From Thermoplasmatota archaeon (lineage in GTDB: Archaea > Thermoplasmatota > Penumbrarchaeia > Penumbrarchaeales > Penumbrarchaeaceae): a stretch of DNA of 27,111 nucleotides. Within the stretch, counting starts at the first letter, position 1. The number at the start of each line of letters is the position of its first letter. A program made the translations under genes and the position numbers. The DNA lies in NCBI GenBank assembly GCA_029762535.1, contig JARVGK010000040.1, forward strand, positions 1 through 27,111. The letters are read 5' to 3'. The notes under the pieces are model-generated. The model saw only the letters and a list, made by a program, of their open reading frames with translations. It did not search any database and was not told where the DNA came from. Shown one piece after another: positions 1 through 16,595 of this stretch.

Positions 1-3000
1 CTGGATCCATAGCGCTCGGGACTATTACCATGAGCGAACCCTGCACTCCCTCGATAATGACGGGCTTGCCCTCCTTGACGGTCAACTCATTGACGCGCAA
101 GAAGGAGGGGGGGTCGTTAACGGGGAGGACCGTGACGTTTATCTGGACGACGGGCCAATCCTCGCTTACGTGCACTTTGTTATCGATCGCCTCTATCAAA
201 ATATAATCGGTCCCGAAGAAGTCCTCGTCCGGGATTATGACATTGGCTCCTGATAGCGGGTCGATCTCCATGGTAAGATAGTTCTGACGCTTCACATTGA
301 ACGAGAGTTTGTCCCCATCGGCATCGAAGAAGAGCGAGTACAGGTCAACGAGGTCCACACCCGGCTCATCCTCGGTGAGCTCTACATGAACGTAGTCCAC
401 GATTGCCTCCGGCAGGAAGTTGATGACGTTGGTGTACACCATTACCTCAGGTCCGAACTCGTAACCGTCGAAGGGTTTGACGGTCGCCCTTATTCTGGTG
501 TTCTCCATCGTCATGGAATAAGGTAGTACCATATCGGTCCCGGATTGTATGAGCTCCCAGCTTCCCAGGCGCTCGATCTCGAAAGAGACGAAATAGCTGA
601 TCTCATCGATCGGATCCACGTCGATGTCCGTGCTGGGGGACACTATTTCCACCGTTATATCGTCCATGGTCGATGCCGGGATCGGTCCGATGGAGATCTC
701 GGGCGCCGTTGGCTTGTTGTTAACGGTCATGAAGGTGAAGACGTCGGATGAGGACATGCCCCATGGGTCGAAGGTCTCCACGGTGACGTAGAACTGATGG
801 TTGAACCTCAGGTTCCTCTCGAAGGTATAGGTCGGAGGAACGCTGCCCTGCTGGGGGTCATCGTTGACGTACAGCTGCCGAACGATCGCGTCCTCCAGTA
901 TGATGTTCGACGGGGATATCTCGTCCTGATATACGTTCAGCCTGTGCTTTATCACATCATTGTTCCAGTCCCAGGAGGCGTTCCACGTTATCGTCGGCCT
1001 CCTGTTGTGGGTCACGGCCGGTGATACCATCAGAGGGGTGAGCCAAACCGGAGCCAGGTTCACGGGCATCTCGATCTGCCTGAACAGGTACGACGTTACT
1101 GTTTCCGGACCTCCCCAATAAGGGATGTATCCGTCTTTAACAACCGTGATGTTCACTGGGTTGTTGTCATCGGAGTTCGGGCCTTCGAACGAATATTCCA
1201 GCATCCTGACCTTCCTCGCCCAGCCGTCCACGCTCATCTGCGCGTTGACTATCTCGTTGAGGTCCCTGTCATAGACGACCAGCGTGGGCATGGATATGAA
1301 ATCCCCGGTCATGTTGTCCATGGCGTAGATGTCCAGAAGCTGATAGTTCTCGAAAGTGGATTGCTGATCGTTTATGAACAACTTCGATATGGGTATAGTA
1401 GTGTTGACGGCTATCCCGGAGGAAGCATCGCCCAGGGTGAGGTCCCGGTTGTTGCCGGTGAAGGTCGAGTTCTCTATGACGAAGCTGGACCCGCCCTCGA
1501 TAATCGAGCCTGTGTTGGTGGATCCCGTTATGGTAACTCGCTCGATGTGGACAGAAGAGCCGTCGTCGAGACTTATCCCGATATTGTTGTTCTCGAAGTT
1601 GCCCCCCTCTATCATGCAATCCTTGGCCTCGAATAGGCGTATTCCAGCGCTTCCCGATCCGGAGATGGTATTGGCCTTGAGGTTCGTCCCGTCGGTCGAG
1701 GATTCGATCCCGATGAAATTGTCCACGATGACGTTCCCCTCAATGAGGTCGGGAGTGGAATCGATCAGGGATATGGCCTTGTTCGTCCCCGTAATGGTGT
1801 TGCCCGTGATACCGGCGGAGGACCTCCGGCTCTGTATGCCTATCTCGGTGTCGTTTATCTTGCATCCCCTCGTCGTCGATGTGGTCTGATTGTCGAGGAA
1901 AACGCTGCCGAGCCCGTTCTCGTAGATGAAGGAGTCGTAGAGCTCACCCTTGCTCCCGTCGAGGTATACACCCCAACCGGCGTTATGGTGGACCTTTGCC
2001 CCTTTGAGGGTGACGGACATCTTGCTGGAGTTCGTCCTGATGCCGTGTCTTCCGTTATCATATACCTCAACATCCTCTATGGTGGCCGTACAGTCGTCGA
2101 AGGTGGACCCGAACCCGTCCAGCACATTGTCCATCGCGACCCCCCTCTTGACGATGAGCTGGGGGTTCTCATCATCGGCCGTTATGCGATTCTCCCACTT
2201 CATATCGACGCCGTACTCCCCGTTACCGCTGAACTCGCAGTCGATGAGGGTCACCTGGCCGCCTCTCCTGGCAACGTAACCCGTCCCTATGTTGTTAATG
2301 AACTTCGAATCGTATATCGACATGTAGCGCATTCCGACGGAAGATTGTATGGGATCGAAGGAAAAACCGAAATATTTATTGTTCGCGAAGGTGCAGTTCT
2401 TCATCAGACCCGCCGCTCCGTAGTAGAAATTTCCCCCCTTGTAGCCATTTCCTATGAACGTGCAGTTCTGAATGTCGGGTACGATGTTGTTCCCTACGGC
2501 TATGAGTCCGGTGGCTGTGGTGTTTGACACCGTAACGCGGTGTATCCTGGGAGTGGCGCTGTGGGAGACGGTAACGGGGTAAGGGCCGATATATATCCCG
2601 GCCTGCTCGCAGTTGTAGATCTTCGTGTCCTCGACTATCACGGTCTTGTCCGAGGTGGACCTCAGTTGCAGTCCTCCATAGACATCCGTTAGATAGTTCG
2701 TATCGTCCGCCCCCCATATATACGAGAGATCACAGTGGCTGATGTGGAGATCGCCCGAGACCTCGAACTTCCAATGATATCCCCATGTATGGGTCCATGC
2801 CGAGGGGTTTCCGCTTCCAGGCCTCGAGATGTACGTCGTCTTGTCATAGGCGCTGAGGTTGCTGAACTTCATGTAGAGCGAACCGGTATTGTACACATAA
2901 ACGCCATACTCTCCGTCCTCCTCACCGCCGAACTCGATATACGTGTAGTTGATGTATAGAGTTCCGTACACGTGTATGCTGGCGTTCATGATGTAGCTCT

Positions 3001-5892: not shown

Positions 5893-8166
5893 TCATCTCC
5901 TTTTCCGAAGATAGATATAGAGGACCGCGGAGACGGTCCCGAGCAAAAGCACTGCGAGTATTATATAGGGAAAGGCTCTGGAACCGCCTCCTTCCGGCCT
6001 TTCATCCTGCCATGGACCCGCGGCCCGGTCCAGGTCATAAAGGGTCAGGTCCAGGGTCGTTTCTATCGACACTCCGGAGGAAACGTCCGTCATGAGCGGC
6101 GCCCTCATGGCGTTCGAATAGACCGATCGGAACACCGTAGCGTTATCGCCTGATATCGTGAGTACCGCCCTCATGCTGTATGGTATCCTCAGCTCAACAT
6201 AGGAAGTGTCCCTCAACGGTTTGAGTATCCTTATCCCTTGCCCTCTGACGGTTATGCCGTAGAAAACACCCGTCGTCCTTATGGGTATCTCGTACGTGCC
6301 GGGCCTGCTGAACAGCGGTGAGTCCCCTCCGAAGTCCGCAACGCCGTCGAGGTCGTAATCGACCTCGATCGAGATCCCCCCCACGTGAAGGTCAGCCATG
6401 GATAGGGGAACGTAGCTTATGTCAATGGAGATAGCAGAGGTCCCGTCCGGAACGAACAGGTACCTGGTCTGGTTCTGGACGAGCAGCGGTTTGCCGTTCT
6501 GATCGTTGAAGCGGCTGTACTCGCCGTTCCATGATGTGACGAGCTTGTCGGACCTTCCCACGATCGATGTACGGGTGACATCGGCATCGGAGAACAGGGC
6601 GTCCATGACGCTCACCTTCCTGTGAGGGTTCTCCCGCCTCAGACGGTCCAATGTGAGGGCGATACCGACAGCCTTCTCGATGTCGATGAAACCGTATCCC
6701 TGGACGTAGTCGATGCTCCGGCCCCCCCATCCTGTCGAGGTGTCGTTGACATATATGTGCGTCTCGGACTCCTTGCCCTCAATATATGGGATCCTGGTCG
6801 CGGATGCCTCGAGTATCAGCTCCGCCTCGTGAACGAATCTATATGGGTGGAAGTGGAACCATTCATGGTCCCCGCCGGAATAATCCTCCGCCGTCTCCGA
6901 TATGCCGAGAGAGGGGCAGGCCTCGAACAGAAGCGCCACCGTCCCGGCGACGTGAGGCGTGGACATGGAGGTACCTGAGATAGCCAGATAGTAAGGGTTG
7001 GGGTTACCCCCAATCTTGGAACCAGCCGAGATACCCGTCCTCCTCGCGTGAGCGGCCCATATCCTCACCCCCGGGGCTCCGACGTCCGGGTATGTGTGGT
7101 TGAGGCCAACCTGCCCATGGGATGTGAATTCCGCAACGGACGTGCCGTCCCTCGCGTGCGCCGCCACCATTATCGCACAGGGGGTCGCGCCCTGCTGAGA
7201 GGTCCAGACCGTTGTGCCCTTGGGGTCCTGCCTTCCGTCGTTCCCTGCGGAGAACGTGCAGACCACGTTGTTCTCGTAGGTGAGGCGGTTTATGATTATG
7301 GACAGGGCCATGTTGGGATCGTATTCACCCTCCGTGGTATGCCAGGAATTGGTACATACCCTGATAGGTGGGTGAGGGTAGGTGGCCCCGGGCCTGGAGT
7401 TATCGAACACCCATTCCAGGCCGTAGAGGTAGTTCGCGGTGGACACCTCGACGCTGCCCTCGGAAAGGGATAGCCCCACCAAACTCGCTCCCGGAGCGAC
7501 CCCGCTCCTCCCTCCCGCCGAGGCGTCACCGTTCCCGGCCGCTATGCCGGCGCAGTGGGATCCATGGCCTACGGAGGTGTCCGTGTTCTCCATCTCGACC
7601 CAGGGGGATCCCGCCTGCGCGGCCTTGATATTCACCACGGTCTTCGATCCGTAGTCGAGGTCGGGATGACCGGCATCTAAACCGGAATCGACGACGGCTA
7701 TGGATACTCCAGACCCAGTCACGCCGTCCTTCATCGAGTTCCCTTCCTTGATGGCGGAGGACCATACCCTCGGGGCCTTGACGGCCTCGGTGGACACCTC
7801 GAGGTCCTTGACCACGGGCGCGTCGTATTCTATATGCATCACCCAGTCCATGCGGGTCAGCGAAGGAAGGAGGGATGCCCTGATCGTCGCCTGGTAAACG
7901 TCCACGTACGTGAAACGATGCCCGACCCGGAGCCCCAGATCGTTCAATCTGCCTCGATACATACCAGCTTGCGGCTCGGATACGTGAACGAGGACGGCAA
8001 GATCCGAATCGCTCAACCATTGCACCCGCCCTTTCTCCATATACACACCGCATCCCTCGAGCGTTCTTGAGAGCTTCCCAAGCACTGGCTCATCGATCGT
8101 TATGTCGGCCGGGGGAACGATGAGGGGCAGCATCACGATTGCCATTATCAGTAGCCTGTACCCCAT
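5893..8166 (-). CDS. Membrane-anchored extracellular S8 (subtilisin-like) serine protease, paralog 2, 757 aa
   Basis: Signal peptide MGYRLLIMAIVMLPLIV; catalytic VVDSG (D), GHGSHCAG (H), SAGN (oxyanion N), GTSMSTPHVAG (S); C-terminal TM + RKRR. Start ATG 8166 overlaps the upstream stop (TGATG), with GGAGG upstream. Confidence 0.92.
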   Translation of the reverse strand: MGYRLLIMAIVMLPLIVPPADITIDEPVLGKLSRTLEGCGVYMEKGRVQWLSDSDLAVLVHVSEPQAGMYRGRLNDLGLRVGHRFTYVDVYQATIRASLLPSLTRMDWVMHIEYDAPVVKDLEVSTEAVKAPRVWSSAIKEGNSMKDGVTGSGVSIAVVDSGLDAGHPDLDYGSKTVVNIKAAQAGSPWVEMENTDTSVGHGSHCAGIAAGNGDASAGGRSGVAPGASLVGLSLSEGSVEVSTANYLYGLEWVFDNSRPGATYPHPPIRVCTNSWHTTEGEYDPNMALSIIINRLTYENNVVCTFSAGNDGRQDPKGTTVWTSQQGATPCAIMVAAHARDGTSVAEFTSHGQVGLNHTYPDVGAPGVRIWAAHARRTGISAGSKIGGNPNPYYLAISGTSMSTPHVAGTVALLFEACPSLGISETAEDYSGGDHEWFHFHPYRFVHEAELILEASATRIPYIEGKESETHIYVNDTSTGWGGRSIDYVQGYGFIDIEKAVGIALTLDRLRRENPHRKVSVMDALFSDADVTRTSIVGRSDKLVTSWNGEYSRFNDQNGKPLLVQNQTRYLFVPDGTSAISIDISYVPLSMADLHVGGISIEVDYDLDGVADFGGDSPLFSRPGTYEIPIRTTGVFYGITVRGQGIRILKPLRDTSYVELRIPYSMRAVLTISGDNATVFRSVYSNAMRAPLMTDVSSGVSIETTLDLTLYDLDRAAGPWQDERPEGGGSRAFPYIILAVLLLGTVSAVLYIYLRKRR

Positions 8167-10511
8167 CAGGCCTTCCTCCGCTTCCTTCGGACATATCGGC
8201 TGTAGATCACGTAAAGGGCTATCGCGACCAACAAAACCATCGCCAGGATCCAGAACGGGAACGGCCTGGACGGGCGCTCGGGTTCGGGAGGCGGGATCGG
8301 GACCATCCTCTCCATATCGAACATCGTACCTTTCTGAACTACGGTCCCCCCCTGATAGGCGCTGGATGGAGCCGCCCCGCTCCACCGTGACAGCATGGAG
8401 TTGGATGGGGGCTCCATCAATTCGAGGGATCCGTTATCGGGGATCGCCACGCGCATAGAGGCGCCGATGACATACTCCATCCTGAACTCGAAATACTCAC
8501 CGTCCCTGAACGGCTGCAGGGCCTTGAATCCCCTGCCGTATATGCCTATCGCCCAGTACATGCCTGACCTTGAGGCATCGACGTTGATCGTCGCTGTCTT
8601 CGTTCCGCTGGTCCTGGAGCCGAGGAATGGGTGCTCGTAATCGAAGGTCCCATCCCAACCATAGTCTATGACGAAGGTGAGGTCCCCTATCTGGCCTTCC
8701 CTGAGTATCCAGGGATCGAACTGAAGCGTTATCGAGATCTCCTGTGCTCCCTCCGGGACGTATATCAGCCTGGTCTGGTTCTGCACCAGCAGCGGTATGT
8801 CCCTGTCCTGCGCATACCTTGCGAACTCGCCTTTCCATGAAGTATGCAGGGTGTCCGTCGAGAGGTTCCTGGTCGTCTCATGGAAAACCCCCCCTCCCTC
8901 GTAGACCTCGATGGCATCGTTAACGTTCCATTTCCTGTCGCCGTACCTGTCCCTGAGACGCTGGAGCGTCAATGCGATGCCCACGCATCTCTGCGCGTCC
9001 ACTATTCCGTATCCCTGAGCCCAATCGATCGGTTTTTGGTCCCATCCGATCTCGGTATCCCCCATGTCCTCAGGTTCCGGCACACCGTTGTCGTTGGCCT
9101 CGTCCGAGAGGGGGATCCCGTCCGGGGACAGGTAATGGGCCGACTGCTCCATTATCCACTCGATCTCGTGAATGCGGTTGAAGGTATTTGCGACCCATCC
9201 CTCCGGATCGTCTCCGGAATAGTCCTCGAACCTGTCCGATATCGTAAGAGAGGGGGCCGCCTGGAACATCAGTGCCGCGAGCCCGCTGACATGGGGGGTG
9301 GCCATCGAGGTTCCGGAGATCGCAAGATAATAGGGGTTGGGATTGCCCCTCATCTTGGACATCGCGGATATCTGCGTGATCCTCGCATGGGCCGACCATA
9401 TCCTGACTCCCGGGGCCCCGACATCGGGATATGTCTGGTTCTTTCCTTTCTCGCCTCTGCTGGAGAAGTCGGCCACGTAGGATCCGTCCCTTGCGAAGGC
9501 GGCGACCCCGATGTTCGATGGGATCAGGGATGTAGGGGAGGTGGTCAGGGTCTCCCCGGAATGATAGCCTCGGCCCGCATTACCCATGGCGAAGACCACC
9601 AGAACATTGTTGTCGTACGTGAGCTTCTGACAAATTTGGGACGTCGCGTCCTCGGGATCGTATTCCCCCGCCCCCCCGCCCCATGAATTGGATACCACTC
9701 TTATGTTGTGGGGATTCGGCGGTCGGGAGTTTTGATATACCCAGTCCAGGCCTTGAAGCGTGTTCGTAAGGGTGATGCCCACATCCCCAACGCACAGTCC
9801 AATGAGCTTGGAATCCGGCGCCACGCCCTTTCTGGCACCCGCCGAGGCATCCCCGTTCCCTGCTATGGTCCCCGCGCAGTGGGTTCCGTGGCCGTAGCTG
9901 GTGTCCGAGTTCTCGAGCTCGTACCAGGGGCCTCCGGGTATGTCGGATTTGATGTTGATGATGGTCTTTCTGCCGTAATCCAGGTCCGGATGCCCGGCAT
10001 CGATCCCCGTATCCACCACAGCGACCGTCACGCCTTCGCCGGTTATCTGCGGGAAATCATGATTAGCGGAACATATCCAGCTGTCCCATGCCAGCGTCGC
10101 GTTTATGGTGAGCAGCGATTCCTCCATGTCGAAGGTGACCTCATGGTCGTGCTCCATCCAAACGACCCTTGGATCCCCGCTAAGCCTCATTATCGTATTC
10201 GGATCGCCCTTGAGGGTCGCTACCGGAATGGTCTTCATGGTGGCGATGACATCGGTCCCGGACCTTCGGGCGAGTTCCAGGTCCCTATCGATCGGAAAGC
10301 CCCTGTACCTGACCAGGACCTGGATGGACGGCCCGGATGGATCCTCCAGCATGGGCCTGAGCTCCCGGTCGATCACCGGAAGGTAAACCTTCCGGGGAAG
10401 AATTTGGTCTCTCCCGGCCGATCCAAGAACGGGGATTATCAAAAGCGATATGACCATCAACAACAGCAGCAGAGCGGCCGGCCTTTCCTTCGGCGATCCC
10501 TCGGAGGGCAT
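8166..10511 (-). CDS. Membrane-anchored extracellular S8 (subtilisin-like) serine protease, paralog 1, ~781 aa
   Basis: Signal peptide, propeptide-like region, VVDTG, GHGTHCAG, AMGN, GTSMATPHVSG, Pro-rich linker, TM + RRKRRK. Start is ATG 10511 or GTG 10517; AATATATC at 10541..10534. Confidence 0.92.
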   Translation of the reverse strand: MPSEGSPKERPAALLLLLMVISLLIIPVLGSAGRDQILPRKVYLPVIDRELRPMLEDPSGPSIQVLVRYRGFPIDRDLELARRSGTDVIATMKTIPVATLKGDPNTIMRLSGDPRVVWMEHDHEVTFDMEESLLTINATLAWDSWICSANHDFPQITGEGVTVAVVDTGIDAGHPDLDYGRKTIINIKSDIPGGPWYELENSDTSYGHGTHCAGTIAGNGDASAGARKGVAPDSKLIGLCVGDVGITLTNTLQGLDWVYQNSRPPNPHNIRVVSNSWGGGAGEYDPEDATSQICQKLTYDNNVLVVFAMGNAGRGYHSGETLTTSPTSLIPSNIGVAAFARDGSYVADFSSRGEKGKNQTYPDVGAPGVRIWSAHARITQISAMSKMRGNPNPYYLAISGTSMATPHVSGLAALMFQAAPSLTISDRFEDYSGDDPEGWVANTFNRIHEIEWIMEQSAHYLSPDGIPLSDEANDNGVPEPEDMGDTEIGWDQKPIDWAQGYGIVDAQRCVGIALTLQRLRDRYGDRKWNVNDAIEVYEGGGVFHETTRNLSTDTLHTSWKGEFARYAQDRDIPLLVQNQTRLIYVPEGAQEISITLQFDPWILREGQIGDLTFVIDYGWDGTFDYEHPFLGSRTSGTKTATINVDASRSGMYWAIGIYGRGFKALQPFRDGEYFEFRMEYVIGASMRVAIPDNGSLELMEPPSNSMLSRWSGAAPSSAYQGGTVVQKGTMFDMERMVPIPPPEPERPSRPFPFWILAMVLLVAIALYVIYSRYVRRKRRKA

Positions 10512-10559
10512 GGCCACAAATAAGCTAGGATGGGATATATTGCTTGCGGCCCTCTGCCC

Positions 10560-13500
10560 TCACTCCTCCTTGTCGTCGATTCTGCTCTTCACCTTGGATA
10601 TGATCAAGACCAGTGCCACCAGGATTATGATTATCAGGATTATCGCCCCGCATAGTCCGAGGCATCCCAGGAAGCCGGGACCAACTGTCTCTTCATCATG
10701 GGAGATAGGAGGCATTGGCCTGTCCTGTAGCGGTGTGAGAATGTAACCTTTGTAAAGAGGCCACATGTCCGGCCCTCCATCCCGGTCCGAGAAATGATAG
10801 TCATACCTCATGTCCCAATCGAAGTTGAAAGGGGCTATGCTCCCATAGTATTTGCCCGGCTCGGTCTCATCCAGATTGAAGGATCCCACGCCATCAATGA
10901 CGATGTACACGCTCTGGCCTTGCCCTCCTTCGACGTTCACTATGACCGTCCTGTCCTTGATAACCTCGACCATGACATAGGTCAGATGCCATTCGGCTGC
11001 CCCCTCCCCGGTGGTGAAGTCCCAGGTCCTGACCTCGGAGGGATCGAGAACATGTCCTGCGTATGAGAGTACCATCGATGATATCTCGATGGTGTAGGTC
11101 GTGTTCGGGATAAGATCGGAATGGACCAGCGTCACCGTCCTTCCGTCTCCCGACCAGGTGAAGCCGGTCACGTTCAATTCCGGAGTTATGACGAAGCCCG
11201 ACTCAACGGTCGTCCTGTTCATCGAATGGGAGAAAGAGACGCGTATCCTCTGATTTATACCCACATCGCTTCCTGCAGGATACCGATCCACTATCGATAC
11301 GAACTCAGGGGCGGCGATCTCCTCGTATATCAGCGTGATGTCCATAGAGAGTATGGAAACGTCCAGTTCTATGTCCTCGATGGAGGCGTTCCCGTATCCC
11401 GAGCGGACCCCGTTCATGAACTCCATTCCCTCCGGAGGACGGGCGATTAGAAGGTATCCGGCCCCGTAGGGGACATCCTCGAACGCATATACCCCCTCTG
11501 GTCCCGAGACCGTGTCCAGGTGGATATCCAATATGGCGTTCTTCAAAGATACCGAGGCGTTCGGTATCCCGCTCGAGAATGGACCGCCTTGTGCCATCAC
11601 CGCGCCCGAGATGCTCCCGAACGTCCGGTTCCCGAGAACGAATTTGACATCGATCGATCCTGAGATGACCTCGATCTCCAGAGTTCCGGGGGCGTAGAGT
11701 TCGTTCCCTGCAAATGACAGTCGATAGCTCCCCGCGACCACCCTTAAGCTGAAAGAACCGTCGGCCCCGGTCGTGAGATGCAGGCTCGAGCCGTTATATG
11801 CTGGGGGGTATAGCAGTGAGGGTACCTCCATATCCAAAACGAGGTCGATCCCTTCCAGTGGGTCATCCTTCCAGTCGACGACCGTCCCGTTTATGTGATA
11901 CGTGGGCGCCAGAACGAGCTTCAATCCCTCTATCCCCTCCGGAGGCACCTCCAGGTCCAGCTTGTCCCACATCGATGGAGTTCCGAACACGGCCCGCAGC
12001 GATCCCGGATAACACATGAAGGAGAAAACGCCGGAGGGATCCGTATGGCCCTCATCCACGATGAAATGTTCCTTTTCCGGGTCCACCATTACTACGAAAC
12101 CCTCCAGCGGGTTATCGTCGATGTCCACGAGCGTTCCGTTAACCCAGGTGCTGAGTTCCGGAACGGGCTCCAGCATTATGTCCATCTGCTTTCCCGCCCT
12201 CGAGGTCATGTCCAACTTTTCCCTGTAGGGATAATAACCCTCTCGGTCGCAGTAGAGATCGACCGTGTCCCGACCCCAAGCTCTGTAATAGCCAACATCA
12301 TCACTTCCGATGCTGTACTGTGAGAACAGATGTACGTAATTCTCCTCCTCCCCCCATAGGCTCTCGAAATAGGGCATGATATAAGGCACCTGCCTTGTGG
12401 GGGTCATATCGAGATATCTTCTTGAGTACGCACCCAATTCCTGATTCGGGATCGCCATTCCGGTCGATGAATCCCTTATGAACCCTTCTACGCTATCTAG
12501 AGGATGGGTCGGATACATGACGATCTCTCCGAGAGAGCCTCCCTCGGGGGGGACCTCGAAATCGATCTCCTCGAACCTCCAATGACTGCGGGCGTTGGGC
12601 GATGACTCGTAGCCCTCATACATACTCACGAGATAGGACCCGGGCAGCACCTTTGCCCTGATCATACCCGTATTATCCGATACTGGCTTGTAGGTACTCG
12701 AGGGATGGTCAAGCGAATCCATCGTCACGGCCTGCCCCGCAACGGGCCCCCCCTCCGCTGAAACGAGGTTGAGGGAGATCTCGACGGGATCGGGCGGGAA
12801 CGTGTTCCTGATCAGGGATATGACCGCGCTTCCAGTCCCTCCTTCGGGGACGCTGAGGTTCTTGATGCTCCCGGAACCGATCGAGTAATAAGCCTTGACG
12901 ACTGGATAGGTGGCGGCCTTCACCGTCGCGTTGAAGTAGCCGTCGGTCCCGGCCATCCCGTAGAAGGATATCCATCGCCCGTGCTCATCACTGTATAGCG
13001 ATGCCGAGACCTGTGCTTTGGGAACGATGATCCCCGAAACCTCGTCAACGACCTTGATGGATACCTGGCCTTCGGGGATCGGGTCCGGAGCCGTTGGCTC
13101 CAGCGTGACGTCAAGATCCACGGGCTCGGATACAGGCCCGGGAGGGATCGTGATGTAAGAGGTGTCGTATCCCCATTCCCAAACATCCAGAACGACTTCC
13201 ATATCCGGAGGGATCCCTAGCTTCGTGTTCCCGGAGGCGTCGGTATAGGCGGACGCGGATATGCTCCGGTGCTCCCTCGGATCGTACAACGACATGTAAT
13301 AACCGACCGATGCGGAGGCGATCGGACCCATGCCGTCCTTGACGTGAACGTCCACTCTTCTCCACTCCTCGGGATAGGGGACCTCGGCATCGACGAACAT
13401 CTCCGTGCCGTTAACGATCGCAAATCTTTGGAATCTCATACTCACGTTCCATTCGATGTCCTTCTCCGTTTCAAATCCCAACCCGTACTCACCCGGACCG

Positions 13501-14351
13501 ACCATCAGGTCAAAGTATCCCGTGACCGGATCTCCGCTGTAGCTCCATGAGCTTTGTCTGGTATTCTCCCGATCGGCCGCATACCCTGAGGCGGAGGCAT
13601 AGTACAGAGGCAGTATGTCCGAGGAACCTTTCCTCAATGCCCTTACATGCAGGGGGACGGTTCCGGAATATTCAGGGCGCAGCTCTATGTCCAGATCGTA
13701 TGCGTCCTTTCCCTGAACGATATGCAGTTCGTTCGTGTACGTATCGTATCCTGCGACCGCTACCGTCACCTTGTAGGGCCTTGAGGCTTCTGGAAGGTAC
13801 ATGGTGTAGGAACCGTCCGCGGCCGTGAACTCCGTCAGTGAGATGGGAGCCCAGTTCTCGTCCTCGCCGTTAAAGCCCACAGGCTGGCCCGATAATGGGA
13901 GCCCGGTTGACACGTCCGTTACCTTGCCCTTCACCTCGTTAGTCCAGGGCAGGAAGGGCTTCAGCACGCCCACTATCGGATGGTTACCGTCCGGCTCCAC
14001 GAAGAGAGAGGTGTTCCACCAGTATACCTCCGCCGCATCGTAGGCCCATAATCTGCAGGGCCCCCAGTTGTTGGATTCCACGTATAGGGTGCACTCGCCG
14101 TTCAGGTCGGTGGTCCCGGAAACGGTATTGTACGATGCCTGACCGATATTGAGCAGGCGGACCTCGAACGACTCGGCAGGATCGCTGTTAGGGTACTCCA
14201 GGCTGATCTCCACCGTCGCCGAATACGGCCCGGGGATCCTGGATCCGGTTGGATGTCCGCCCCGGACCTCGAAATCCATCGCCAATGCCACTGTCAAGAA
14301 CAATGCCGCGACGCACAATGCTGCTATTGAAGAACGCTTGGCCCTTACCAT
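10560..14351 (-). CDS. Large cell-surface protein, 1263 aa: repeated carboxypeptidase-regulatory-like (prealbumin-fold) domains, an SbsA/Big_5-type Ig domain and a C-terminal TM anchor
   Basis: Signal peptide MVRAKRSSIAALCVAALFLTVALA; repeats of the GxVxDxxTGxPL...TxxDGxY type; YPAGSDVGINQRIRVSFSHSMN...NTTYTIEI...WDFTT; terminal PGF-TM-KVKSR. Confidence 0.85.
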   Translation of the reverse strand: MVRAKRSSIAALCVAALFLTVALAMDFEVRGGHPTGSRIPGPYSATVEISLEYPNSDPAESFEVRLLNIGQASYNTVSGTTDLNGECTLYVESNNWGPCRLWAYDAAEVYWWNTSLFVEPDGNHPIVGVLKPFLPWTNEVKGKVTDVSTGLPLSGQPVGFNGEDENWAPISLTEFTAADGSYTMYLPEASRPYKVTVAVAGYDTYTNELHIVQGKDAYDLDIELRPEYSGTVPLHVRALRKGSSDILPLYYASASGYAADRENTRQSSWSYSGDPVTGYFDLMVGPGEYGLGFETEKDIEWNVSMRFQRFAIVNGTEMFVDAEVPYPEEWRRVDVHVKDGMGPIASASVGYYMSLYDPREHRSISASAYTDASGNTKLGIPPDMEVVLDVWEWGYDTSYITIPPGPVSEPVDLDVTLEPTAPDPIPEGQVSIKVVDEVSGIIVPKAQVSASLYSDEHGRWISFYGMAGTDGYFNATVKAATYPVVKAYYSIGSGSIKNLSVPEGGTGSAVISLIRNTFPPDPVEISLNLVSAEGGPVAGQAVTMDSLDHPSSTYKPVSDNTGMIRAKVLPGSYLVSMYEGYESSPNARSHWRFEEIDFEVPPEGGSLGEIVMYPTHPLDSVEGFIRDSSTGMAIPNQELGAYSRRYLDMTPTRQVPYIMPYFESLWGEEENYVHLFSQYSIGSDDVGYYRAWGRDTVDLYCDREGYYPYREKLDMTSRAGKQMDIMLEPVPELSTWVNGTLVDIDDNPLEGFVVMVDPEKEHFIVDEGHTDPSGVFSFMCYPGSLRAVFGTPSMWDKLDLEVPPEGIEGLKLVLAPTYHINGTVVDWKDDPLEGIDLVLDMEVPSLLYPPAYNGSSLHLTTGADGSFSLRVVAGSYRLSFAGNELYAPGTLEIEVISGSIDVKFVLGNRTFGSISGAVMAQGGPFSSGIPNASVSLKNAILDIHLDTVSGPEGVYAFEDVPYGAGYLLIARPPEGMEFMNGVRSGYGNASIEDIELDVSILSMDITLIYEEIAAPEFVSIVDRYPAGSDVGINQRIRVSFSHSMNRTTVESGFVITPELNVTGFTWSGDGRTVTLVHSDLIPNTTYTIEISSMVLSYAGHVLDPSEVRTWDFTTGEGAAEWHLTYVMVEVIKDRTVIVNVEGGQGQSVYIVIDGVGSFNLDETEPGKYYGSIAPFNFDWDMRYDYHFSDRDGGPDMWPLYKGYILTPLQDRPMPPISHDEETVGPGFLGCLGLCGAIILIIIILVALVLIISKVKSRIDDKEE

Positions 14352-14389
14352 GATAATATCCCCAATGTTCAAGTGCATTTTTCTGCGGT

Positions 14390-14397
14390 TATATAAA
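14390..14397 (-). promoter_or_regulatory. TATA box of the large surface protein gene (divergent promoter region shared with the Cas4-like gene)
   Basis: Consensus TTTATATA on the minus strand; plus-strand AT-rich TTAAATATTAATAATA at 14441-14456 precedes ATG 14479. Confidence 0.6.
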
Positions 14398-14478
14398 CAA
14401 TACCCTGGATCCATCTTGAGTAATATTGCCGTTTCGACAATTAAATATTAATAATAGGTCCAGGGTCAAAGTGACGGG

Positions 14479-15978
14479 ATGCCAACGAATGCGAAAGATA
14501 GGCCGATATCCGCCTCGGAGGTCGAGAGATGGAGCTACTGCCCTCTCTCCTGGAAGCTGGACCGATCGGAACCACCTGTTCGTGACCACAGGTTCGCCAT
14601 AGGCGACAGGGTCCATGCCGATCACGCTGAGAAGGCATCGAAGGTCATCAAGGACCAGGAAAGGGCAATGGACGCACGAAAGACCACCTGGTCCTTCATC
14701 TTGATATCCGGCATACTGCTCCTTCTCGGAGTGTCCCTGGCCTTCCTCACGAGAGTGGGATTCATGAACATCGACGCATGGCGTCTCGTGGTGGTTTCCG
14801 CCTCGATACTGCTCGTCAGCGCGGGCCTCTTCCTCTACTTCAGGAGATCGGCCAAGGAGGGATCGATCATCAAGACGTTGATGTCCGGCAGGGATCTCCG
14901 AGAGATCAGGGGCAGGGTCGGTTTCACCCTCGAGCCGTTCCTCCTCTTCGCATTCGGTTCATACCTGCTCATCAACGGGATACTGATGCTCCAGCCTTTC
15001 GGCCTCTCGCTCGCCTCCCTCGCGAGCTTCATGACGATCTCGCTAGTGGTCATCTACTTCTTCCTGCTGATGTTCTTCATAATCTATCTGAGGGACCCTC
15101 AAAGGGGGCCGTTCAAGGGCAGGATATCCATGACGGCCCTTTTAATGGTCGGCCTACTCATCTTCATCACCGTGCTGTTCCTCTTCATATCAGAGATGTA
15201 TGAGATGGGGGATACCGCGGGATTCATCATACTCATCGCCTCCTTCATATGGTTCATCGGATCCCTGGTGTTCCATCTGTACAGGCAGAACAGGAGAGGC
15301 CCCAAATCCGCGAGGACCGGGTCCAGCGCCGACCTGCCGATGGTTGTCCTATCGATAATCGCCTCGATGTTCGCCGCATCGGCGTTCATGGCAACGAGCG
15401 AGAGGGTTGGGGATTATTACGTTATATCCGTGGCGCTTTCTATACTATGGCTCTTGGGTGCCGCCTTCTTCATGTTCAGGGCAACGACCCTGAAGAGGGG
15501 GGTGGAGGACGGGCTCGAGGATATGGGCATCGCCAGAACCTCGAGGTTGATCGGCTCCGACCCTGTGGTCAGGGGAAAAAGGGGCCGCCCCTTGATGTCC
15601 AAAAGGCATTACCTGATCGGGACACCTGACCTCATCATCGAGGAGGACGGAAAAAAGATACCGGTGGAGATCAAATCCGGCCGTGTTCCGAAATCCCCGC
15701 ATTTCAGCCACATAATGCAGCTGACCTGCTACATGATATTGATGGATGTGGAATACGGCAGCTCCCCTCCATACGGATACGTGGATTACAGGCCCCCCGG
15801 AGAGGAGACGAAAAGGTTCCAGGTCGATCTTGACCTCTTGACCAGGGCCATAGCCCTCTCGAAGGTGTCGGAGATCCGGGACTCCATACGCACCGGGGAG
15901 GCGCATCGGAACCATGACAATCCGGGCAAATGCCGCAACTGTTCCAGGCGCGGTTTGTGCCCGGAGAGGTTGGTTTGA
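14479..15978 (+). CDS. Solo Cas4-like PD-(D/E)xK Fe-S nuclease with an inserted 8-TM membrane domain, 499 aa
   Basis: N-terminal ISASEVERWSYCP and GDRVH; after the TM block GTPD (motif II), VEIKSG (motif III), QLTCY (QxxxY) and CRNCSRRGLC (three remaining Fe-S Cys). Confidence 0.85.
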   Translation: MPTNAKDRPISASEVERWSYCPLSWKLDRSEPPVRDHRFAIGDRVHADHAEKASKVIKDQERAMDARKTTWSFILISGILLLLGVSLAFLTRVGFMNIDAWRLVVVSASILLVSAGLFLYFRRSAKEGSIIKTLMSGRDLREIRGRVGFTLEPFLLFAFGSYLLINGILMLQPFGLSLASLASFMTISLVVIYFFLLMFFIIYLRDPQRGPFKGRISMTALLMVGLLIFITVLFLFISEMYEMGDTAGFIILIASFIWFIGSLVFHLYRQNRRGPKSARTGSSADLPMVVLSIIASMFAASAFMATSERVGDYYVISVALSILWLLGAAFFMFRATTLKRGVEDGLEDMGIARTSRLIGSDPVVRGKRGRPLMSKRHYLIGTPDLIIEEDGKKIPVEIKSGRVPKSPHFSHIMQLTCYMILMDVEYGSSPPYGYVDYRPPGEETKRFQVDLDLLTRAIALSKVSEIRDSIRTGEAHRNHDNPGKCRNCSRRGLCPERLV

Positions 15979-15980
15979 GA

Positions 15981-16595
15981 TCAGTGTATTGGGATCTTCT
16001 TTCCCGGCCTCTTCTTGTGAACGTTGGCGTTCACCGAGGGCCTCACCTTCTCGGCGCCTATGCCCTTCTTCCTCAGGCCCCTCCTCTTCTTACCGGATGA
16101 GGTCAGGCCCCTGAACACCCTTGACGTGTGCTGCCTGCCATCTATCCAGTTGATCTTCGGATCGCTGGTTATCGAGGGATGGTGCGGGTCCACCAGTATG
16201 ACCTCGTAGAACCTGTGCTGGCCGTCCTCGCCCACCCAATAGGAATTGAGGACCTCCATGTTGGTGTAGTGCTTCGCCACCCTCTCCTCACCTATCCTCT
16301 GGATGTTCTTGTTCACCCTCATTCGGATGATACCCCTTCTCTTAGCCCTTCGCCCCTTTCGTATTGCCCTCTTCCTCAGAGAGCCTTTCCGGACCTTGAC
16401 CCTGACGATGACGTAACCCTGTTTGGCCCTGTAACCCAGCTTCCTGGCGCGGTCGAGCCTCAAAGGCCTCTCCACCCTTACGATCGTGCCCTCGGCCCTC
16501 CACTGGATTAGCCTCTGCTTGTTCACCTCCCTGGTCTCTCCATCCAGGGGCCTGTTCCAGCTGTCGTTTATGTAAGAATATACGCTCTTGGACAT
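15981..16595 (-). CDS. rpl15e: 50S ribosomal protein L15e (eL15)
   Basis: RVERPLRLDRARKLGYRAKQG, EVLNSYWVGEDG, YEVILVDPHHP, RVFRGLTSSGKKRRGL; AAGGTGA RBS. Confidence 0.97.
   Translation of the reverse strand: MSKSVYSYINDSWNRPLDGETREVNKQRLIQWRAEGTIVRVERPLRLDRARKLGYRAKQGYVIVRVKVRKGSLRKRAIRKGRRAKRRGIIRMRVNKNIQRIGEERVAKHYTNMEVLNSYWVGEDGQHRFYEVILVDPHHPSITSDPKINWIDGRQHTSRVFRGLTSSGKKRRGLRKKGIGAEKVRPSVNANVHKKRPGKKIPIH

Follow-up and report, generated by a model that had tools for sequence, protein, structure and literature searches.

A Cas4-family nuclease domain split by an eight-helix membrane insert in Thermoplasmatota archaea

An archaeon of the phylum Thermoplasmatota (class Penumbrarchaeia, family Penumbrarchaeaceae) encodes a Cas4-family protein whose catalytic domain is built around an inserted membrane domain, an architecture that appears to be undescribed although the Cas4 fold itself is well known. 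The gene lies near the middle of a window of 27,111 nucleotides, contig JARVGK010000040.1 of the assembly GCA_029762535.1, and specifies 499 residues. Cas4 is known as a soluble protein, from CRISPR adaptation, from viruses and from solo copies. We consider it probable that the protein described here is an active Cas4-type nuclease facing the cytoplasm, that its membrane insert consists of four helical hairpins and that it serves its lineage as a core gene independently of CRISPR.

The open reading frame at 14479-15978 carries all of the Cas4 motifs that a preceding sequence-only reading of the window had named: ISASE (residues 10-14), YCP (20-22) and G42..H46 in the N-terminal segment, and GTPD384, E397-I-K399, Q414xxxY418 and C485-xx-C488-x5-C494 in the C-terminal core. 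Residues 367-495 match the Pfam profiles PF12705 (PDDEXK_1; 40.3 bits against a curated cut-off of 22) and PF01930 (Cas_Cas4; 33.4 bits against 22.7), the Pfam and NCBIfam matches together span residues 364-495, and PADLOC models of Cas4 also recognise the protein, the best of them at 1.3e-16. In a profile search of the PDB the catalytic motifs align to those of 4ic1 and 4r5q, and the N-terminal segment shows a weak alignment with the corresponding ends of 4r5q and 8d3l. The same reading held that the catalytic residues are intact, and conservation bears this out: S11, Y20, C21, P22, G42, H46, W258, W324, G381, P383, D384, E397, K399, Q414, Y418, R477 and H479 are invariant in 51 eight-helix relatives, as are C485, C488 and C494 of the C-terminal triad. 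Cysteines occur at positions 21, 417, 485, 488 and 494, and the one-plus-three arrangement of C21 and CxxCx5C conforms, as a pattern, to a putative iron-sulfur (Fe-S) cluster site. Profile matches, RecB-type motifs, the four cysteines and the predicted fold together place the protein in the Cas4 family (PF01930 / COG1468). Pairwise identity is highest in the nuclease core (65%) and the N-terminal segment (61%), and amounts to 36-53% in the membrane helices, 31% in the linker of residues 336-365 and 14-19% in the cytoplasmic loops. Length is nearly constant, with exactly 499 residues in 21 of 37 sequences, and the local G+C content of 0.55 equals that of the remainder of the window.

The two parts of this domain are separated by a stretch of 265 residues (71-335) in which a 19-residue hydropathy scan counts eight hydrophobic helices, as had been proposed from the sequence alone. 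Across the 51 relatives the loops after helices 2, 4 and 6 are 16-31 residues long and contain on average 8.0, 4.5 and 6.5 lysine plus arginine residues, respectively; the four remaining loops measure 7-9 residues and average 0.3-0.7. Because these charges obey the positive-inside rule both nuclease parts are expected in the cytoplasm, and the predicted N-in, C-in topology with two cytoplasmic Cas4 halves is strongly supported. Independent support for a cytoplasmic nuclease comes from a sister family in which TRAM domains, discussed below, follow the C-terminus of the eight-helix protein.

An AlphaFold2 model computed from the alignment has a mean predicted local distance difference test score (pLDDT) of 69.5, with values of about 90 in both nuclease parts. 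Its best PDB matches in Foldseek are Cas4 structures (8d3l, 4ic1 and 7mi4), followed by Dna2, MGME1 and AdnAB, and the fold matches obtained with Foldseek and VIA-align also include Exo5. VIA-align superposes model residues 4-496 on residues 5-198 of 7mi4_A (Z 18.2, root-mean-square deviation (rmsd) 3.2 Å, 184 aligned residues), residues 2-497 on 2-202 of 8d3l_I (Z 17.1, rmsd 3.4 Å, 187 residues) and residues 1-498 on 17-200 of 4ic1_D (Z 13.2, rmsd 2.9 Å, 169 residues). Since the alignment covers the whole Cas4 domain, the N-terminal 60 and C-terminal 140 residues appear to pack as one Cas4 fold, and the whole-fold superposition places Cys21 with the triad as in Cas4; in the model, Cys21 would thus lie near C485, C488 and C494. 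Two long helices are continuous in the prediction, one (37-93) running from His46 into the first transmembrane helix (TM1) and the other (310-348) leading from TM8 towards the core. A prediction with two copies returned a homodimer score of 0.00 in both runs, a result that counts neither for nor against oligomerisation. The objections that could have overturned the sequence-only reading at this level, namely that the halves might face opposite sides of the membrane or that the four cysteines might be unable to converge, therefore find no footing in the loop charges of the 51 relatives or in the predicted superposition on 7mi4_A, and the Foldseek comparison it had called for returned Cas4 at the top.

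The insert is not peculiar to this protein. A search of 5.8 billion proteins yielded 38 clusters of about 499 residues that cover its full length at 37-74% identity, and those with a named source all derive from Thermoplasmatota genomes; the sources often label these relatives 'CRISPR-associated exonuclease Cas4'. Surveying helix number more widely, as had been suggested, we find that relatives carry one, two or four hairpins at the same insertion site: by a crude hydropathy count, some 160 relatives with an insert mostly have 2, 4 or 8 helices (referred to below as 2-TM, 4-TM and eight-helix forms), and counts of 3, 5 and 7 look like under-counts of an even number. Together these proteins make up a membrane-inserted Cas4 clade, which is defined in this analysis and is not a published family; the protein of the window belongs to it by its same-site hairpin insert, its even number of helices and its two cytoplasmic halves. 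In a FastTree phylogeny of the core, which was built on 137 columns with one long outgroup and is weak outside its starred branches, the 499-residue forms make up one strongly supported clade beside a 4-TM clade, and split forms are basal.

These split forms comprise about 57 representatives of some 175 residues that consist of one N-terminal helix and the core and have no N-terminal segment. At all three split loci examined a small upstream gene overlaps the start of the gene for the core protein. In two of them (L014 and L016) this gene, of about 85 codons, encodes a Cys/His segment and one helix; at L013 it is cut by the contig end, leaving only a helix and a His-containing stretch visible. 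Judged from their reading frames, the two-gene loci are natural split versions of the membrane-inserted Cas4. L016 and a related locus, L015, belong to Chloroflexota genomes and were found with the single-protein locus search; no further conserved partner gene was seen beside the split forms at the loci examined.

Several observations on individual relatives may be added. Immediately ahead of the Cys triad, an HRNH motif (residues 476-479, 15904-15915) shows little or no variation across the membrane-inserted clade; it is kept in the bacterial split forms and absent from the Cas4-Cas1 fusion that the same genome encodes. A 906-residue open frame in relative G113, considered as a possible fusion, proved to be only a stop-free frame in a GC-rich genome, the real protein being a 2-TM form. 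In an atlas fold search the model is matched over residues 9-499 by clusters of 264-270-residue Cas4 proteins from Methanobacteriota, and a short membrane-inserted form may thus extend beyond the Thermoplasmatota into lineages with cultivated members.

Profile-profile comparison resolves the insert into repeats. Hairpin-against-hairpin scores range from 28 to 52 over 53-59 columns, compared to 7-13 for column-shuffled controls, and because the matches run the full length of the units we regard the insert as four tandem copies of a helical hairpin of about 60 residues. The odd-numbered helices tend to bear Asn-Gly/Ala, and the even-numbered ones a Trp-x-x-Gly-Ala..Phe-Phe motif that is best kept in copies 3 and 4. 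The two hairpins of the 4-TM relatives are likewise repeats of each other (score 68.5) and are most like copies 3 and 4, the fourth copy being the nearest to them; a one-to-one mapping of the four hairpins onto these two was rejected, as both resemble copies 3 and 4 most. Close to the outer end of TM3 is a near-invariant N166-G167 (14974-14979), and the short outer loop that follows contains a conserved RPFG (14995-15006); they are the sole conserved feature that would face outside. Word-based searches among shorter proteins found no stand-alone copies of the membrane module, and longer fused forms were likewise not found by this means, which is weak evidence. The membrane part drew only chance-level matches in a profile search of the PDB, the best score of a protein-atlas search with residues 60-345 (0.80) was under the meaningful level, and sub-threshold hits to Phage_holin_2 (20 bits against a cut-off of 32) and DUF2157 were rejected as matches of composition. 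The coordinates of these elements, and of the variants discussed here and below, are collected in Table 1.

Table 1. Features of the membrane-inserted Cas4 gene in the window and of related loci (amino acids, aa; transmembrane helix, TM; the last seven rows give positions within the locus named)
Feature	Position	Strand	Basis or remark
Whole open reading frame, membrane-embedded Cas4-family nuclease P0001, 499 aa + stop	14479..15978	+	Pfam/NCBIfam, full-length orthologues
AT-rich box ~20-40 nt 5' of ATG, possible archaeal TATA element	14440..14458	+	Reading of the sequence
N-terminal Cas4 segment, aa 8-60	14500..14658	+	Invariant residues, weak alignment, structural match
Putative first cluster ligand C21	14539-14541	+	Invariant in 51 sequences
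Metal-binding H46	14614-14616	+	Invariant in 51 sequences
Eight-helix membrane insert TM1-TM8, aa 71-335	14689..15483	+	Hydropathy, loop charge, helices in model
Hairpin repeat 1, aa 64-126, TM1-TM2	14668..14856	+	Profile-profile comparison
Hairpin repeat 2, aa 145-208, TM3-TM4, with N166-G167 and RPFG	14911..15102	+	Profile-profile comparison, conservation
Hairpin repeat 3, aa 212-272, TM5-TM6, invariant W258	15112..15294	+	Profile-profile comparison, conservation
Hairpin repeat 4, aa 281-342, TM7-TM8, invariant W324	15319..15504	+	Profile-profile comparison, conservation
Basic linker/stalk, aa 336-365, TM8 to nuclease core	15484..15573	+	TM8 helix reaches aa 348 in model
Cas4 / PD-(D/E)XK catalytic core, aa 366-499	15574..15975	+	Pfam/NCBIfam, invariance, pLDDT, fold matches
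Motif II-III GxPD384 ... E397xK399	15619-15675	+	Invariant
QxxxY, aa 414-418	15718-15732	+	Invariant
C-terminal Cys triad C485-xx-C488-x5-C494	15931..15960	+	Cys invariant
Split form L016	4127-4390 and 4387-4914	+	Chloroflexota
Split form L014	302-559 and 559-1104	+	Metagenome contig
Split form L013	3-149 and 146-685	+	Metagenome contig, upstream gene incomplete
TRAM, L018, two copies	467-934	-	E 7.7e-18
TRAM, L020, one copy	1985-2284	+	E 6.6e-12
TRAM, L021, one copy	2007-2306	+	E 7.3e-10
TRAM, L022, one copy	582-911	-	E 4.7e-7

Profile matches to the protein occur in 282 of the 401 genomes sampled from the phylum. Within the family of the window 22 of 23 genomes hold a full-length copy, in 19 of the 22 as a single match, and the one genome without the gene is 79% complete; all 13 genomes from the class's other families have an eight-helix form. 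Elsewhere it is rare (2/48 genomes of family f11) or was not found (families f20, f24 and f34). Full-length, stop-free orthologues in 22 of the 23 family genomes dispose of the objection that the reading frame might be a chimeric assembly. The gene converges on its neighbour rpl15e (15981..16595, minus strand), and the order lyase, helix-turn-helix (HTH) regulator, subtilase, membrane Cas4 gene, convergent rpl15e, glycosyltransferase and polyferredoxin is kept in relatives with 38-40% identity and partly kept in a third. Vertical, mostly single-copy inheritance as a lineage core gene is strongly supported. The 2-TM and 4-TM relatives sit in other, ordinary contexts without cas or defence genes, and none of the PADLOC defence families was matched among the neighbours in the window.

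The gene was proposed to have no CRISPR context. This holds for the window, which contains neither cas genes nor repeat arrays, but not for the genome as a whole, which encodes on another contig a 555-residue Cas4-Cas1 fusion (L001 1441-3108; contig C5 ~61003-62670) that lies beside further CRISPR-type genes, so that this archaeon possesses a module for CRISPR adaptation that includes a soluble Cas4 of its own. In these draft genomes Cas1 was found in 4 of 23 members of the family, in 2 of 13 from other families of the class and in 22 of 48 genomes of f11, the family nearly without the membrane Cas4 gene, and four of the Cas1-less family genomes are 90-97% complete. Because the membrane Cas4 rarely co-occurs with Cas1 and its genome has a separate Cas4-Cas1, we take the gene to be independent of CRISPR adaptation. 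Neither the equivalog score nor a cas or array context nor co-occurrence with Cas1 marks the protein as a CRISPR-associated Cas4 (TIGR00372); it resembles a solo-Cas4 in its location outside CRISPR-cas loci, but with an insert of 265 residues it does not have the contiguous soluble domain of about 170-220 residues.

A lead on the substrate comes from the sister family f3 of the same class. TRAM is a small nucleic-acid-binding barrel, and in all four genomes sampled from f3 the eight-helix protein carries one or two C-terminal TRAM domains (PF01938) that score above the cut-off of 21 bits. In an experimental study, TRAM proteins that stand alone in archaea bound RNA regardless of its sequence but neither single-stranded nor double-stranded DNA (PMC5572242), so that the fusion makes RNA a possible ligand or substrate. 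The fusion is confined to f3; the 499-residue protein of the window has no TRAM domain, and the TRAM genes of its genome are unlinked to the membrane Cas4 gene. At the locus with two TRAM copies (L018, genome G077) the N-terminal Cas4 segment (2402-2647, minus strand) precedes the first ATG, GTG or TTG in the same frame; translation may start there at a non-canonical codon, or the sequence may contain an error.

We picture the chain as leaving the Cas4 domain right after the His46 helix, crossing the membrane eight times and returning to supply the catalytic sheet and the Cys triad. The active site would be held on two helical stalks, just beneath the inner face of the membrane because both halves are cytoplasmic. 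Such a nuclease would be active and constitutive, and its tether would confine its action to nucleic acid that reaches the membrane. As to its role, we tentatively favour the trimming or degradation, at the inner face of the membrane, of nucleic acid that is single-stranded or linear, with DNA ends, from incoming DNA or from membrane-proximal breaks, as the likeliest substrate. Tethering would also keep a potentially self-toxic exonuclease off the bulk of the chromosome; for the solo-Cas4 of M. mazei, a heading in the results states that overexpression reduces growth (PMC12501428).

Several results sit uneasily with the interpretation as an active, CRISPR-independent Cas4-type nuclease on a membrane tether. 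With the NCBIfam equivalog model of Cas4, TIGR00372, the protein scores only 56.7 bits, short of the 65 required. In the AlphaFold2 model the membrane part has a pLDDT of only 45-60, too low a confidence for conclusions on helix packing or a pore. No conserved partner gene or operon that would point to a pathway is present at the loci examined, and the TRAM fusion raises the possibility of RNA as much as of DNA. Lastly, the helices are moderately conserved (36-53% identity), the Trp residues invariant, the Asn-Gly pair and RPFG near-invariant and the length nearly fixed, which suggests that the insert does more than anchor the nuclease passively.

What else the protein might do has to be judged against its distribution, its topology and its fold. 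A nuclease at the membrane could serve in antiviral or anti-plasmid defence, either by destroying injected linear DNA at its entry or through an array of helices that senses membrane disturbance and activates the enzyme. The placement of the insert, precisely at the junction of the His46 helix and the core, and the unbroken helices that enter TM1 and leave TM8 in the model would make a plausible mechanical switch; membrane sensors coupled to DNA-binding effectors exist, for example in Kiwa (PMC11785009), Cas4-family domains match defence models weakly (DruK), and the low prevalence of CRISPR-Cas in Thermoplasmatota reported by a 2026 survey (PMC12988326) would make another barrier useful. Defence genes are usually patchy and located in variable islands, however, and a gene that is near-universal, mostly single-copy and syntenic among housekeeping-type neighbours is not what is expected of a typical accessory defence gene; the loci examined show neither a defence gene nearby nor a conserved partner gene, and outer loops of only 7-9 residues leave no room for an outer sensing domain. 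We consider a defence role unlikely. The same brevity of the outer loops, together with hairpin numbers that vary between 1, 2 and 4, speaks against a receptor equipped with an outer domain and against a fixed pore for DNA. We consider it very improbable that the protein is a self-contained device for DNA uptake or export, with a conduit formed by the hairpins of a single chain or of an oligomer and a nuclease that processes the passing strand. That idea draws on the toroidal structure named in the title of the SSO0001 Cas4 paper, as cited in a reference list, on the 318 kDa at which the M. mazei solo-Cas4 runs (PMC12501428), on the absence of partner genes for the protein in archaea and bacteria and on conserved polar residues in the helices (Asn in the odd helices of a 530-600-residue subfamily, and N166 here), but a channel of fixed architecture is not to be expected where the number of hairpins varies, the model is of low confidence in its membrane part and no competence or pilus genes are linked to the gene in the window.

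The housekeeping-like distribution that argues against defence is compatible with a ribonuclease tethered to the membrane, or with a nuclease that is guided by RNA or binds it, acting there on transcripts as a counterpart in archaea of membrane-bound RNase E or RNase Y. The f3 fusions to a domain that binds RNA in archaea (PMC5572242) point this way, as do, weakly because such genes are common, the translation and RNA neighbours rpl15e, Nop, CCA-adding enzyme and RNase HII in several lineages. On the other side, the characterised enzymes of the Cas4 family and the nearest structural matches (Cas4, Dna2, AdnAB, Exo5 and MGME1) act on DNA, the fusion is limited to one family and the TRAM genes of the organism itself lie elsewhere; on balance we regard action on RNA as distinctly unlikely. 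Participation in CRISPR adaptation in trans, in the manner of an ordinary Cas4, would accord with the Cas4 residues and fold and with the presence of Cas1 in the genome, but this Cas1 is already fused to its own Cas4, and 19 of 23 family genomes showed no Cas1 and yet 22 of 23 carry the gene, which renders the proposal scarcely credible. A bolder version of the nuclease interpretation, to which we give little weight, would have the hairpin array as a working module, either a sensor of the state of the membrane or an oligomeric conduit, mechanically wired to the active site by way of the helices that lead from His46 into TM1 and from TM8 into the core, in a one-gene processor of nucleic acid that crosses or touches the membrane. 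If true, it could be the so far missing nuclease for DNA uptake or entry exclusion in these archaea or, given the TRAM fusions, the first membrane-bound RNA-decay nuclease known in archaea.

To our knowledge, no dedicated nuclease is known for the handling of nucleic acids at the archaeal membrane, and the gene is a candidate for such a housekeeping function. It is a core gene of large and environmentally abundant archaeal lineages that mostly have no Cas1, and it provides a natural case of a catalytic domain assembled from two halves across a polytopic insert, complete with two-gene split versions. The TRAM fusion offers a concrete and testable hint at the substrate. There is also a caution for annotation in that these genes are routinely labelled 'CRISPR-associated exonuclease Cas4' in genomes without CRISPR.

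Two features of the surroundings deserve mention. The stop codons of the membrane Cas4 gene and rpl15e are two bases apart (15976-15983), and their transcripts probably overlap at the 3' ends. Upstream, the minus-strand region 5893-14414 is a secreted-protease cluster of two large subtilases (830 and 783 residues) and a 1284-residue protein in which CarboxypepD_reg and Big_5 domains are recognised. This last reading frame is probably annotated too long at its start, as a signal-peptide-like stretch begins 22 residues in.

In the open-access literature, to which the search was confined, we found no account of a Cas4 interrupted by a membrane insert, and a phylogenomic survey of Cas4 from 2017 never uses the word 'transmembrane' (PMC5704561). 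The closest known relatives are the CRISPR-associated Cas4 proteins (7mi4 Cas4-Cas1, 8d3l of type I-C, 4ic1 SSO0001 and 4r5q Pcal_0546), which share the His, GxPD, ExK and QxxxY residues and the one-plus-three Cys pattern, and on which the predicted fold superposes over the whole domain (Z 13-18). The membrane Cas4 differs from them in the 265-residue, eight-helix insert that stands where they have a short connector joining N-terminal helices to sheet, in its clade-specific HRNH motif, in having no cas or array linkage and in a TIGR00372 score under the cut-off. Archaeal solo-Cas4 proteins (Hudaiberdiev et al. 2017, PMC5704561) likewise reside outside CRISPR-cas loci and keep the four cysteines, and the M. 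mazei representative, a soluble 318-kDa oligomer, contains a [4Fe-4S] cluster and acts as a nuclease on DNA in a metal-dependent manner (PMC12501428); the solo-Cas4 proteins described are soluble, whereas the protein of the window is a polytopic membrane protein and a lineage core gene product.

The Fe-S or 'iron staple' nuclease domains of AddB, AdnAB, Dna2, Exo5 and MGME1 match the predicted fold with Z 10-14, and in them a Cys cluster likewise ties an N-terminal segment to the C-terminal end; these domains are soluble and are fused to helicases or work with them in end resection or flap processing, whereas no helicase is fused or adjacent here. Membrane-located enzymes of nucleic acids are familiar from bacteria, with EndA and ComEC in competent species and RNase Y and RNase E in RNA decay. 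In these systems, too, a nuclease is confined to the membrane and meets only the substrates that arrive there, but the folds are unrelated. EndA faces outward and ComEC has a dedicated channel domain, neither of which is a feature of the membrane Cas4, and in RNase Y and RNase E the tether is a single terminal helix or an amphipathic helix, in contrast to an insert placed within the catalytic domain. Kiwa, in which a four-helix membrane tetramer of KwaA acts with KwaB (PMC11785009), likewise couples a membrane helix bundle to a cytoplasmic effector directed at DNA; it divides these tasks between two proteins of unrelated folds, has the distribution of a defence gene and employs an effector that is not a Cas4-type nuclease, whereas the protein described here joins helix bundle and Cas4 domain in a single chain.

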